Source of the DNA: Nanobdellota archaeon
GTDB taxonomy: Archaea; Nanobdellota; Nanobdellia; Pacearchaeales; GW2011-AR1
Assembly (NCBI GenBank): GCA_038045165.1
Contig: JBBSYR010000093.1
Span: forward strand, 1 to 12,724
Reading direction: 5' to 3'
DNA length: 12,724 nucleotides
Every line of letters begins with the position of its first letter. Positions within the stretch are counted from its first letter, which is position 1. Positions 2,084 to 9,467 of this stretch are shown one piece after another. The translations under genes and the position numbers were made by a program. Below the pieces are notes generated by a model. That model was given only the letters and a program-made list of their open reading frames with translations. It made no database searches and was not told the DNA's origin.

Positions 2084-2720
2084 ATGCTCTCTGCAATCTT
2101 TTGCGAGTTTAGTTACACTTTTGGCAAAGAAGTCCTAAGAGAAAGTATACAGGAATTTTAAAGTAAGTCGGGCTTTTGGAGACTTATTTTTTAGGTATGC
2201 TGACACCAAAAGATTTTATCATACTCCAAAACATCTTTTAGATTGTTTAAAAGAATTTAAGGGTACTGAAAAATTAGCAAAATCTCCTTTAGTAATCGCT
2301 TCAGCATTATGGTTTCATGATGTAGTTTATGATACGAAAGCAAAGGATAATGAACTGAGAAGTGCAGATTATATGAAAAGAGTTCTTTCAAATCTAGGAG
2401 TTTCATCTCAATTAATAAATTTGACTAATAGAATAATTTTAGTAACAGACCATAAAACTCCTATTGAGAGCGCGGATGAAGCCTTAGCAGTAGATGTTGA
2501 TTTATCAATATTTGGAAAACCAGATGAAGTTTTTAATGATTATGATCAAAACATTAGAAAGGAATATCTTTGGGTTCCAGAAGATCAATATAAAACGGGA
2601 AGAAAACAAGTTTTAAGAAGTTTTTTGGATAGGTCACAGATTTATCAAACGGAACAATTTAGGCAAAAATATGAAGAAAGAGCAAGAACTAATTTAGAAA
2701 GAGCAATTAGGAATCTTTGA
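2084..2720 (+). pseudogene. COG4339-like HD-domain metal-dependent phosphohydrolase, with its reading frame broken near the 5' end
   Basis: The tracked ORF 2373-2720 is only the C-terminal part. The same frame stays open back to 2139 and encodes ...AFGDLFFRYADTKRFYHTPKHLLDCL...ALWFHDVVYDTKAKDNELRSADYM, the R-x-YHT and WFHD-x-x-YD signatures of this family. It has no ATG, GTG or TTG there. TAA at 2136-2138 closes the frame. ATG 2084 in the +2 frame runs to TAA 2159-2161, and ATG 2046 is in frame but stops at 2136. Confidence 0.6.
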
Positions 2721-2814: not shown

Positions 2815-2911
2815 AATTATATTCAAGGACTTAATCAATTGAGCAGTTTGGTCCTTGAATATCAAGGGAAAAACATACAATTTTGCTCAATTATTTATGT
2901 TTTTCACTATA
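2815..2911 (-). mobile_element. Copy A of a roughly 96-nt MITE-like structured repeat (intergenic, inverted relative to copy B)
   Basis: The reverse complement of 2865-2911 is identical over 47 nt to 7158-7204. The rest aligns with 11 substitutions and 1 indel. Internal inverted repeats are 2821-2830 with 2851-2860 (10 bp, perfect) and 2837-2845 with 2884-2892 (9 bp). Confidence 0.75.
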
Positions 2912-3030: not shown

Positions 3031-3354
3031 TCAAAATCCAAATAATCTGTTGTAATCTTTATGATTCATCCAATCTAAAATTGCAGCAATAATTTCGATT
3101 TCACCGCCCGAAGTTACTGAATACAAAAGTCTCCAACCGCTCGGCAAATCATAAATCCAAAGATTTGTGAGCTCATATTTATCAATCAGTTTTCTAGGAA
3201 TCAGCTCTTTCTTGACGTTTCTTCCGCAGGAAAAGTTTTCTTGAATTGCGCTGATTGCCTGAATAATGCCGCGCTTGATAGGATCGTTATCTGAAAGTTC
3301 GTTGAAACTTATTTCAAGTTCTTTATCAACAAAGACAATTTTGTTCGGTTTCAT
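3031..3354 (-). CDS. RelE/ParE-superfamily-like toxin, 107 aa (putative)
   Basis: The C-terminal pattern NLWIYDLPSGWRLLYSV....IEIIAAILDWMNHKDYNRLFG resembles the (G)xRxxY....I.I..I..H(K/R)..Y core of RelE/ParE toxins. Small size. A 4-nt ATGA overlap (3351-3354) couples it to the upstream small ORF. Confidence 0.5.
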   Translation of the reverse strand: MKPNKIVFVDKELEISFNELSDNDPIKRGIIQAISAIQENFSCGRNVKKELIPRKLIDKYELTNLWIYDLPSGWRLLYSVTSGGEIEIIAAILDWMNHKDYNRLFGF

Positions 3355-3641
3355 ATTTTAATTGCAGGTCTGTTCTTTACCTTTTCAAAAAACGCAGGAT
3401 TCCAGATATAAACAACATAACTCTCTGTGTCGTATGCAACTTTATGAATACTTTCAAGGTATTCCATAATGACCTGAAATGTCTGCCACATAACTTTTCG
3501 CGGCAGGCTGTTGAATAACTCTGTTTTCTTGTATGCACCGCTATGTTGTTTAATATAATTCTCAACCATAAGCACGGTTTGTAAAGTTGGAGAGCGCGCA
3601 AAGGGAGATTGTTGTTCAGTTGTGGATTCCATACTTATCAT
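3351..3641 (-). CDS. Putative antitoxin or small DNA-binding partner, 96 aa, family not recognised
   Basis: Translationally coupled and upstream of the toxin-like ORF, which is the classical type II order. The middle region (TLQTVLMVENYIKQHSGAYKKTELFNSL) could be a winged-helix. An alternative start is Met4 (ATG 3632-3630), which would fit a leaderless mRNA. Confidence 0.45.
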   Translation of the reverse strand: MISMESTTEQQSPFARSPTLQTVLMVENYIKQHSGAYKKTELFNSLPRKVMWQTFQVIMEYLESIHKVAYDTESYVVYIWNPAFFEKVKNRPAIKI

Positions 3642-6913: not shown

Positions 6914-9467
6914 ATGCTCCCTTTAATCGTTAACATCATGAAAGAAAATAAAATGAATAAATCCAAATACAATTGGATTATTTTTGCATTGTTGTCTGCA
7001 GTGATTATTTTAGCTGCAGAGTTTGCTTATGCACAATCTACTATAAATCTCGGAACAGCAGGTAATTTTGCTATATTAGCAAAGTCAGGAATTTCAATTA
7101 CTGGAACAACTTCGATTATTGGTAATATGGGAATTAGTCCTGCTGCTTTTAGTTATATATAGTGAAAAACATAAATAATTGAGCAAAATTGTATGTTTTT
7201 CCCTCGATAGTCAAGACCTTTTTGCTCAATTTATTAGGTCATTGACTATAACTGGATTTTCGTATACAATGGATTCCTCTAATCAATTTGCGACATCACC
7301 TTTAATCAACGGAAATATTTATGCGGCAGACTTTGCTTCTCCAACTCCTTCTGTTATGATTACTGCTATAAACGACATGCAAACAGCATATACTGATGCA
7401 TCTGGACGGACATTGCCAGATTATACTGAACTAGAATCTGGAGATATTGGCGGATTAACTTTAACACCGGGGCTTTACAAATGGAGCACTGGCGTGACAA
7501 TTCCCGCTGATGTAACTCTCTCAGGAAACTCAACTGATATCTGGATATTCCAAATAGCACAAACTCTCGATATCAGCTCCGCTACACAAATTATACTAAT
7601 TGGTGGTGCACAGCCAAAGAACATCTTCTGGCAAGTCGCCGGTCAAACGACACTGGGAACCGCTTCTGTTTTCAATGGAAATATTTTAAGTCAAACGGCA
7701 ATTGTGCTAAATACTGGCGCAACATTAAACGGAAGAGCATTAGCACAAACAGCAGTTATCTTAGATTCAAATAATATCTCATCACCTATAGAACTAATTA
7801 GTGATATACTCCCCCCAGTCATAACTCTTAATGGCGCAAGCTCAATTAATGTGTCTTTAGGCTCAGTTTATATTGATGCAGGAGCAACAGCAGAAGACAA
7901 TCTCGATATTACGGCGGTTATTTTTGAAGTTAGCACTGTAGACACATCAATCATTGGAGAATACACGGTAACCTATACTGCGACAGATACTGCGGGCAAC
8001 ACTGCAATATTGATAAGGACAATTAATGTTATAGTAGAATCCCCTGTTTTGACAACAATCACCTTGTCACCAACTTATGAATTACTTACTGCTGGAGATA
8101 CTTTGCAGTTGAAGGCTACAAGTCTTGATCAGTTTGGCGCTCCTATAAATGCAATTATTTCTTATTCTTCAAGCGTCCCATCTACAGCTACAGTAGATGC
8201 TGTAAGCGGTCTTGTTACTGCTGTTGCTTTTGGGATTAGTACTACCATTACTGCAAGAAGCGGAAATGTAAGTGGAATAATGTTAATCACTATAGACAGC
8301 ATTGCTCCAGTGCTTTCTCCTATAGGCCCAAGAAGTGTGACTCAAGGAAATTTGCTTAATTTCACAATAACAGCTACAAGTCCCGAGGGACTTGATTTAG
8401 CATTTATGATAGCAGTTGAACCCCCTACAACCGCAACCTTAACAGATCATCAAGATGGAACTGCAACATTCAACTGGATGCCTGATTTAAATGACGTTGG
8501 CACAACTAATGTGAGATTCATCGCTCTTGATGGCAGAAGAACTACATACGAAGATGTAGCAATAATTGTAAATGCGTTCCCAGCACCAACAACAATTTCA
8601 ACAAATCTAGGAAATGTAGAGAAAAACGCTGACTACAACATTGCCTTGAACGCTACAGGATTTAATAACACACCAGTCGCATATATTAACTATTCATTAA
8701 ATAATGTTTCTGGGCAAATAAACGGAAGTTTCGGAAACGTATTAATAAACACAAACGGAAACAACGCTCTGATATTTTACGCTGTTGACATCTTAGGAAA
8801 CATAGAAACACCAAACACAATTTATGCACTACTGAACAAAAACACGCCCTCCCCAGAGGGAGGCAATGGAAATACTGGAAGCAGCGGTGGCGGAGGAGGC
8901 GGAGGCATTACCGCAACGACAGTAATAGCTGCTGTTAAGACTTATATTCCTGCAAATGCTGAATTAAGCATAGGATATGCAAACGTGCTAAGTAAGAATG
9001 ATATAGTAAAATTTGTTAGCAGCGATAATGATATACATAGTATTACAATTAGCGACCTTAGCGCAACTGATGTTAAGATAACTCTTGCATCAACGCCTCA
9101 GATAGTTGTTATGAAGTCTGGAGAGACAAAGAAATTTGAATTGACCTGGGATAATAAATATGATTTGGAAATCGCTGTTGGAACATTAAATACTGGAAGT
9201 GTAACTATGGTTGTAAAGACTATATCGGAAGATATCTATCCTGTTGTCGAACAGCTCGAAACAGTCTCATCAACAACCCAAGCTGAAACTACGCCTGCAT
9301 CAGCTTCTGCAGCAAATTCTGAAGTTACTAATGGTAATGGAATAACTGGAGCGGCAATAGGAGCTTTTGTAAAGAAACCTCTTACCTTAGGAATTATCGC
9401 TCTTCTTTTGATTGCAATCGTATATTCCATAGTCGTTCTTAGAAAAATAAATTCTTCAAGGAATTAA
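6914..9467 (+). pseudogene. Large cell-surface protein interrupted by the 96-nt repeat. Order: signal peptide, ice-binding-like DUF3494 beta-helix, Ig-like domains, poly-Gly linker, C-terminal TM anchor
   Basis: ORF 6914-7162 encodes the signal peptide (NWIIFALLSAVIILAAEFAYA) and the domain start LGTAGNFAILAKSGISITGTTSIIGNMGISPAA. ORF 7179-9467 resumes at 7245 with TITGFSY...TPGLYKW...IWIFQI...GGAQPKNIFWQV...LNGRALAQTAV, the rest of DUF3494. Next come a DUF5011-like segment (PVITLNG...YTVTYTATDTAGN), a Big_2-like segment and a He_PIG-like segment. Then GSSGGGGGGG (about 8880-8905) and the TM segment LTLGIIALLLIAIVYSIVVL. The true start is probably ATG 6938 or 6953, downstream of the TATA-like CTATAAAG at about 6900. 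Confidence 0.8.
7158..7253 (+). mobile_element. Copy B of the roughly 96-nt MITE-like structured repeat, inserted within the DUF3494 coding sequence
   Basis: Homology to the reverse complement of 2815-2911 begins at TATAGTG (7158) and ends at TATAACT (7253). TATA is repeated at both junctions (7156-7159 and 7247-7250). Terminal inverted repeat: TATAGTGAA against TATAGTCAA. Internal hairpins: 7177-7188 with 7220-7231 (12 bp) and 7209-7218 with 7237-7247 (10 bp plus a bulge). It carries the stops TAG 7160 and TGA 7163. Confidence 0.8.

Follow-up and report, generated by a model that had tools for sequence, protein, structure and literature searches.

What maintains two nearly identical non-coding repeats, placed in inverted orientation on one small archaeal contig: past transposition, selection on a folded molecule, or both? 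The question is raised by contig JBBSYR010000093.1 of a Nanobdellota archaeon (assembly GCA_038045165.1), whose 12,724 nucleotides were analysed as a whole and are called the window here. A preliminary description of the window had reported the repeats as inverted copies carrying compensatory differences in two hairpins with interleaved arms, and had proposed a pseudoknot or two mutually exclusive conformers, with selection on the fold beyond the simple decay of a miniature inverted-repeat transposable element (MITE). Our reading, to which we give a probability of about three in four, is that the repeats are two copies of one non-autonomous MITE of the IS630/Tc1-mariner type, whose hairpins are kept and which is mobilised in trans. 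The idea of structure-conserving evolution is thereby retained from the preliminary description, and the element is nonetheless a MITE.

Identification of the element

The reverse complement of positions 2818-2911 (copy A) aligns end to end with positions 7158-7250 (copy B); no difference occurs in the first 47 nt, and the remainder differs by 10 substitutions and one one-base indel. The inverted arrangement, the identical stretch and the indel had been described correctly, the number of substitutions (given as 11) had not, and the limits first proposed (2815-2911 and 7158-7253) took in three flanking bases per copy (2815-2817 and 7251-7253) that lie outside the element. The element is non-coding and about 93 nt long (94 nt for copy A, counting both TA copies, and 93 nt for copy B). 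A repeat search of the window recovered the two copies as an inverted pair and their terminal inverted repeats (TIRs) as internal inverted repeats. These TIRs measure 28-31 nt, follow the pattern TATAGTSAA..AC.TAA..AATTGAGCA, and each combine TAGTSAA..AC at the terminus with an inner box AATTGAGCA. A degenerate 28-nt form of this pattern matches the window four times, at precisely the four ends of the two copies, where 0.00 matches are expected from 200 shuffles. Coordinates of all these parts are given in Table 1.

Copy B lies within a gene for an ice-binding-like (DUF3494) surface protein. The open reading frame (ORF) 6914-7162, of 82 aa, stops at a TAG (7160-7162) that belongs to the element. 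Positions 1-29 of the Pfam Ice_binding profile end at residue 82, the last before copy B, and positions 30-207 begin at 7251. Deleting 91 nt, that is the element and one TA, restores the frame (...SPAAFSYITGFSY... / ...GISPAAFSYITGFSY...), and the rejoined protein aligns without gaps to its homologues, with ITGF invariant. Since both the reading frame and the Pfam profile resume across the element, copy B is a gene-disrupting insertion, which has knocked out the ice-binding-like gene. No intact orthologue or empty site of this same gene was found, its closest homologues being just 59-73% identical. An independent assembly of the copy B locus (L147, an ENA ERZ1292638 contig of 7318 nt) ends about 50 nt past the stop of the 82-aa ORF, i.e. 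inside copy B.

Relatives of the element were collected from two scans, one of species-representative genomes (27 loci) and one of metagenomes (at least 118 further loci); the loci listed in these scans, numbered with the prefix L, are the basis of all counts of copies, sites, sequences and IS-B loci given below, which are lower bounds. A scan of viral contigs for the element gave no match. Two of the sites could be compared in empty and filled form: GGAAATTAA-TA-ATCGG in L138 against ggaaattaa-TA-TAGTG...GACTA-TA-atcag in L020 and L059, and CTTGATG-TA-GCG in L019 against L010, where the element stands between two TAs. Together with the 91-nt frame restoration, these two pairs establish that the duplicated target is TA and that the element proper runs from TAGT to ACTA.

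Insertion sequences with similar ends

The preliminary description had recognised no named family and had suggested looking for an IS630/Tc1-like partner with TA targets. The ends of the element do match the termini of insertion sequences (ISs). The closest belong to an autonomous-looking, multi-copy IS that we call IS-B, whose 30-nt TIR TATAGTCAAGGACTTAAATAATTGAGCAAA occurs at no fewer than 27 loci, nearly always close to a contig end, and shares 24-25 of 28 positions with the window TIRs. This TIR is followed either by a TTTATATA box and the start of an ORF (MDLLKYSLQEIEKAY...) or by the end of an ORF (...NLLNYLSP and stop), the stop codon sitting within the TIR itself. The 45 N-terminal residues of IS-B align colinearly with positions 10-47 of a hidden Markov model built from 120 IS630 ORF1 proteins (17 bits, E=1.8e-7 for one comparison) and match the IS630 ORF1 of L011 by BLASTP (E=1e-5); Pfam and NCBIfam return a weak HTH_23 match alone. 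More distant are the two-ORF IS630 elements of groundwater metagenomes (HTH_33 and DDE_3; L149-L158), which end in TA-TAGTATATAACATTAATAATCGG and agree with the left TIR of the MITE at 20 of 28 positions, TA-TAGT included (shuffle p about 0.004). A complete two-ORF element of the IS630 family according to NCBIfam, with HTH_33, a frameshift and a DDE part containing ...LPPYSPELNPIEQYW..., lies at L011 2098-3202 and has the termini TA-TAGTAAGGGAG.

This likeness to IS termini makes the element a MITE, although one with structure-conserving evolution. Its assignment to the IS630 family rests on the TA duplication, on TIR similarity and on the N-terminus of IS-B, and an IS630-family transposase of the IS-B kind would mobilise the MITE in trans. 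Two further arrangements of IS-B ends were seen. At L011 4922-4949, a solo IS-B-type TIR abuts a 118-aa ORF, 1.7 kb from the IS630 element; at L052 12407-12474, an IS-B end is inserted in another IS-B at a TA just past the TTTATATA box, and the contig stops before the second junction.

A different parent was suggested by two loci where MITE-type ends surround a transposase gene of the IS1634 family (L098 409-1975, 1567 nt, and L076 2564-4418, 1855 nt; 153.6 and 257.3 bits with NCBIfam IS1634, against a cut-off of 100), so that the MITE might derive from, and be moved by, an IS of that family. This origin is very remote, as the internal segments bear ends of their own (CCTGAG.../...CCCAGG) and lie between 6-bp direct repeats (TAAATA and TATCTA) of which the intact MITE has a single copy at the corresponding position. 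Moreover, IS1634 elements make 5-6-bp repeats, at odds with the TA duplication of the MITE. The nested duplications refute IS1634 as the parent, and it is IS1634 that has inserted into the centre of the MITE. The two insertions are of different IS1634-family ISs, encoding transposases of 453 and 530 aa, and occupy the same spot, namely the linker between the hairpins of two MITE subfamilies; L098 409-1975 is the same as L144 926-2492, and L083 is the same locus. The position of IS1634 at the MITE centre could reflect structure-specific or site-specific targeting.

Occurrence in DPANN archaea

The 27 species-representative loci come from Woesearchaeota, Pacearchaeota, Nanoarchaeota and Aenigmatarchaeota, plus one contig labelled Bdellovibrio (L021), and this last label is the sole exception to DPANN archaea among the named hosts of all matches listed. 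Pairing of ends yields at least 103 elements. Short copies of 92-95 nt number at least 84, at 72 or more distinct sites and with 48 or more distinct sequences. One sequence (L029 9705-9797) is found unchanged at 21 sites or more, for instance in L033, L034, L039, L045, L051, L092 and L095, and L095 carries three identical copies inside 2.5 kb. Such identity indicates a recent burst, in one groundwater population. The element is thus multi-copy and has been recently active across several DPANN lineages. Many matches lie about 70-210 nt from contig ends, in keeping with a repeat on which assemblies break.

Among the matches listed, 63 of the 72 sites are intergenic, and the gene setting is convergent at 14 sites, tandem at 20 and divergent at only 2. 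The intergenic bias and the few divergent sites draw the usual picture of tolerated insertions.

In addition to the short copies, long variants of 143-315 nt retain both terminal hairpins and contain further hairpins in between, two in the variants of 143-166 nt and more in the longer ones; the 315-nt variant has a long insert without structure. The additional stems often open with TCAAGA and close with TCTTGA, and their distal sequences are unrelated from one variant to another. The family is therefore a modular hairpin array between two TIRs. Other MITE types with the same outer TIR pattern were met at L062 1321-1435 and in L087 (an element of 115 nt) and in L112 near 832. The 115-nt type displays no obvious return arms by eye, and self-folding ends may not be universal for these TIRs.

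Conservation of the two hairpins

The preliminary description had placed the arms in the order H1-5', H2-5', H1-3', H2-3', which is right. It had also quoted the arms of H2 correctly (ATTCAAGGAC/GTCCTTGAAT in one copy and AGTCAAGACC/GGTCATTGACT in the other), and those of H1, AATTGAGCA/TGCTCAATT with an AAAA/TTTT extension in copy B, are present as sequence. Missing from it was a third complementarity, GAAAAACATA/TATGTTTTTC, and it is because of this third pair that the arms appear interleaved. Indeed, each TIR is followed inwards by a return arm that is complementary to the terminal 12 nt or so of the same TIR, and each half of the element thereby folds into its own hairpin: hairpin 1, whose loop contains box AATTGAGCA, then a linker of 2-5 nt, then hairpin 2 (the former H2), whose loop contains box TGCTCAATT. 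Minimum-energy folding predicts these two tandem hairpins for both copies and both strands with DNA as well as RNA parameters (z -4.9 to -6.7).

Pairing was counted on an alignment (A2) of the 48 distinct short copies, on which a structure of four helices was scored. A covariance model (R1) retrieved all copies, yet on both strands and partially on long variants, and the alignment derived from it (A3, 191 columns) was too ragged for counting pairs. Hairpin 1 is paired in 93.7% of cells and has double-sided changes in 7 of its 12 pairs. For hairpin 2, double-sided changes affect 7 of 13 pairs, so that the compensation first noticed between the two window copies proves general, and 88% of cells are paired, an underestimate since a bulge shifts the register between subfamilies. 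None of 500 shuffles matched the observed paired fraction or covariation score of the whole structure, and when the partner was slid by 1-3 columns, pairing fell to 35-44% and no more than 32 cells were compensated, against 73 without the shift.

The arms were also folded after permutation among copies. Cognate arms gave -6.85 kcal/mol against -4.32 for permuted ones in hairpin 1, and -8.08 against -4.84 kcal/mol in hairpin 2; in neither case was any of 2000 permutations as good, and restricting the test to one instance of each distinct pair (21 for hairpin 1, 33 for hairpin 2) does not alter the result. Examples are GAAAAACAT/ATGTTTTTC, GAAAGACAT/ATGTCTTTC, AAACGAACA/TGTTCGTTT and CAAAGACAC/GTGTCTTTG for hairpin 1, and AAGACC/GGTC-TT, AAGGAC/GTCCTT, TCTGTGAC/GTCCCAGA and AAAGGCGC/GCGCCTTT for hairpin 2. 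Changes at the tips are compensated too (GGCTATA with ATAGCC in L074, GGATATA with ATATC in L064). Both hairpins have thus been maintained through numerous compensatory double substitutions.

The pairing between the two boxes, i.e. the former H1, behaves differently. It is paired in 96.5% of cells, none of its 9 pairs is compensatory, and all departures are broken or one-sided. Its extension, which the preliminary description had read as an AAAC-to-TTTT block lengthening the helix, is paired in 23% of cells, with double-sided change in 2 of 3 pairs. H1 therefore does not stand as a selected helix: the boxes are conserved inner parts of the TIRs, and their pairing is the ordinary TIR-TIR complementarity of such elements and is not under selection as pairing. 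When forced, it turns the whole element into one stem, TIR to TIR, at an energy 2-6 kcal/mol above that of the two hairpins in copy A and copy B alike. A fold spanning the centre is favoured by 20 of the 48 copies when RNA parameters are used. An alternative conformer would then exist on paper, and covariation lends it no support.

These results bear on the possibility that the repeats are a dispersed gene for a structured non-coding RNA containing an H1/H2 pseudoknot. The interleaved arms, and the presence of both complementarities in both window copies, are what such a gene would predict. We nevertheless regard it as very improbable and as largely refuted, given that H2 is compensated and H1 is not, that the extension is seldom paired and that the H1 conformer is energetically the poorer one. 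The TIRs, the TA duplication, the occurrence in both orientations and the interrupted ORF are equally foreign to it, and no Rfam family corresponds: neither copy matches Rfam, and the sole match of the window at E<=1 is a tRNA. The pseudoknot is accordingly replaced by two hairpins in tandem.

Selection could still act on RNA, if the element served as a portable stem-loop in read-through transcripts (3' stabiliser, processing site or insulator), as has been proposed for REP/BIME, ERIC and Correia sequences; the pairing would then be preserved by this benefit, or by a lessening of harm. As RNA, the element folds strongly (-23 to -25 kcal/mol, z about -5), the sites listed are enriched 3' of genes, as seen from the convergent and tandem settings above, and copy A itself lies between two convergent 3' ends. 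However, no orientation bias was found with respect to co-directional neighbour genes (13 same, 7 opposite), nor any strand-specific wobble signal: G:T and A:C mismatches number 9 and 19, so there is no excess of the RNA type, G:U not exceeding A:C on either strand. The lack of an Rfam match also counts against an RNA role, and selection on single dispersed copies alone would not yield compensated master copies. A strand-specific RNA role is thus less likely, and we consider selection at the RNA level in general as unlikely.

Complementary arms might, finally, arise without any selection, by arm-to-arm conversion or repair in a folded strand, or by repeated fold-back birth, in which case the covariation would carry no information on function. 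Palindrome arms do homogenise in other systems. Moreover, in IS-B the return arm reaches at most 6 bp at the 3' end (TAGTCA...TGACTA) and does not exist at the 5' end, from which it follows that the hairpins arose in the MITE lineage. Yet the subfamilies share loops, linker and layout and differ by paired substitutions (GAAAAACAT/ATGTTTTTC against GAAAGACAT/ATGTCTTTC), which indicates descent with compensation and not repeated birth. The many distinct arm pairs (21 and 33), the unrelated stems but constant hairpin layout of the modules in long variants, and the length of the arms, about 12 bp, which is short for conversion, point the same way. A non-selective origin consequently seems improbable to us.

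A possible role of the hairpins

Coming back to a MITE mobilised in trans, the hairpins may be a cis feature that favours the transposition or the persistence of a substrate of about 90 bp. We favour, tentatively and at clearly less than even odds, a cis role in mobilisation of a substrate far below the persistence length of DNA, because a gene-less MITE is selected mainly on being mobilised and tolerated, and because in Stowaway MITEs the internal sequence is known to modulate activity, a precedent for its adaptation to transposition (Yang et al. 2009; see PMC3718332, where it is cited). A folded strand could set the two cleavage sites a few nucleotides apart, on single-stranded or unwound DNA. 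The length of the loops speaks for folding of such DNA over classical cruciform extrusion.

A stronger proposal, which we think unlikely, is that an IS630-type transposase working on ultra-short substrates requires the fold-back hairpins in cis, the terminal 12 bp or so of each end forming an intrastrand stem whose loop carries the recognition box. If true, this would describe a cut-and-paste element of the DDE type working on folded single-stranded DNA, loosely like integron attC sites or the ends of IS200/IS605, and would account for the modular hairpin arrays and perhaps for the precise insertion of IS1634 between the hairpins.

Several observations weigh against the reading as a whole. The loops measure 16-20 nt, and cruciform extrusion from duplex DNA would be costly. 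The ends of IS-B do not possess full return arms, hence hairpins are dispensable for the autonomous element. The pair counts take no account of phylogeny, and kin copies swell the cell totals. As for the partner, the TA duplication, the likeness of the TIRs and the IS630-like N-terminus agree with the IS630/Tc1-like transposase first suggested, but no listed contig carries IS-B and the MITE together, which is weak evidence as the metagenome-assembled genomes are incomplete. A full IS-B transposase, with its catalytic domain, was not recovered: all contigs break 97-211 nt inside it and give 45 N-terminal and 39 C-terminal residues. The C-terminus is marginal against IS630 ORF2 (2.3 bits, E=0.008 for one comparison) and returned nothing by BLASTP. 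Likewise, the 45-aa query found no candidate in a set of 5.8 billion proteins, and tblastn of IS-B over all loci retrieved contig-end fragments only.

Comparison with known elements

The element type is already known, as a MITE, and its distinguishing traits are the self-folding ends, their compensatory evolution and the hairpin arrays. Its nearest counterparts are the IS630-family MITEs (RUP of S. pneumoniae and MITEEc1/ERIC) and the Stowaway elements of plants (Tc1/mariner), which share with it a size of about 100 nt, the absence of coding sequence, multiple copies, TIRs of the IS630/Tc1 type, a TA duplication and a mostly intergenic, sometimes gene-disrupting location. MITEEc1/ERIC is named MITEEc1_IS630 in PMC11602168, and ISfinder lists it under IS630. 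The present family differs from this group by its DPANN host, by two tandem hairpins in place of one TIR-TIR stem, by the compensatory evolution of these hairpins, by long variants with hairpin arrays and by a partner that is partly recovered.

Correia elements (CREE) of Neisseria also duplicate TA and give hairpin-forming transcripts. They are MITE-like, of about 100-155 nt, and their first 7 nt (TATAGTG) are common to both families; past these 7 nt the sequence is unrelated, the hosts are bacteria and a single long TIR-TIR stem is formed. The Correia TIR begins tatagtggattaa (PMC5039591).

Archaeal MITEs have been known for a long time (PMC3718332) and resemble the element as non-autonomous TIR elements that need the transposase of a resident IS. 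In Sulfolobus, the SM/SMN MITEs are paired with ISC1733 and ISC1058 as partners, according to a passage of PMC3718332 citing Redder et al. 2001. A link of SM1 to ISC1048 as an IS630 element was dropped, ISC1048 being called an IS607 element in the single paper found. A MITE census of 2024 counts 105 MITEs per Mb in a Woesearchaea genome and ranks it among the densest archaea; in the part of it used here, this census (PMC11602168) gives MITE counts without anatomy and shows that DPANN genomes are MITE-rich.

The BOX and REP/BIME/REPIN sequences of bacteria are alike in their modular hairpins, in keeping structure over sequence and in being intergenic, but they lack the signature of TIRs with TA duplication, and REPINs need a RAYT (HUH) protein. 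The MITE could in this light be seen as a hairpin doublet of the REP/REPIN kind, transposed by a RAYT that acts on single-stranded DNA, with its two opposed hairpins, its structure conserved above its sequence and its mainly intergenic position. Such an origin is highly improbable in view of the clear 28-nt TIRs and TA duplication and of TIRs held in common with an IS of IS630-like N-terminus; no RAYT gene turned up either, although no systematic search for RAYT was made.

The results mean that DPANN archaea, with their small genomes, host a MITE family that is active, is present in several lineages and is able to inactivate genes. Its repeats fragment DPANN assemblies, contigs ending within the copies, and the interior of the IS is missing from bins. 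With a substrate of 90 bp, the family amounts to a natural experiment on transposase requirements, and the compensatory evolution of its ends points to a structural requirement, for which evidence of this kind is unusual in a TIR element. Should the hairpins be needed for mobility, they would add a new twist to IS630/Tc1 mechanics; if they are not, this is an ordinary, well-documented repeat family to be masked in DPANN annotation.

Features of the window

Table 1. Position of the MITE copies, their parts and the interrupted gene in the window, and of long variants at other loci (CM, covariance model score; earlier H2, hairpin of the preliminary description).
Feature	Position	Strand	Remarks
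MITE copy A	2818..2911	-	between convergent ORF 2373-2720(+) and ORF 3031-3354(-); CM 102.9 bits
Copy A left TIR TATAGTGAAAAACATAAATAATTGAGCA	2884..2911	-	box AATTGAGCA at 2884-2892
Copy A right TIR TATATTCAAGGACTTAATCAATTGAGCA	2818..2845	+	box TGCTCAATT (element strand) at 2837-2845
Copy A hairpin 1 (GAAAAACATA/TATGTTTTTC)	2868..2905	-	arms 2896-2905 and 2868-2877; left box in loop
Copy A hairpin 2 (earlier H2)	2819..2862	-	arms 2851-2862 and 2819-2830; right box in loop
MITE copy B	7158..7250	+	TA 7158-7159, core 7160-7248, TA 7249-7250; CM 113.8 bits; within gene
Copy B left TIR	7158..7185	+	box AATTGAGCA at 7177-7185
Copy B right TIR TATAGTCAATGACCTAATAAATTGAGCA	7223..7250	-	box TGCTCAATT at 7223-7231 on + strand
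Copy B hairpin 1 (GAAAAACATA/TATGTTTTTC)	7164..7201	+	arms 7164-7173 and 7192-7201
Copy B hairpin 2 (earlier H2)	7207..7249	+	arms 7207-7219 and 7236-7249; one bulged A
Ice-binding-like (DUF3494) surface-protein gene split by copy B	6914..9467	+	frame 6914-7159, again from 7251
Long variants	L020 1255-1397, L116 5994-6143, L127 948-1097, L023 5404-5556		
Long variants	L101 3486-3708, L125 12306-12590, L050 8023-8337		

The window has a G+C content of 30-40% and carries genes of archaeal type (TrmB, a CDP-alcohol phosphatidyltransferase and an OB-fold/DHH protein) and one tRNA-Met. Next to copy A, positions 3031-3641 of the minus strand contain two ORFs of 96 and 107 aa that overlap by 4 nt, have no Pfam match and are laid out like a toxin-antitoxin pair.

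Two other repeats were observed. The 16-mer AATGCAGTTATCCATA occurs three times (4-19, the 775-823 region and 2067-2082), two of them exact. The one at 808-823 stands opposite an inverted copy (GGATAACTGC...GCAGTTATCC), directly 5' of ORF 835-1125, which gives it the look of an operator. The second repeat, TTCYAAGAAGTTTT, is found at 424, 1312 and 2611.

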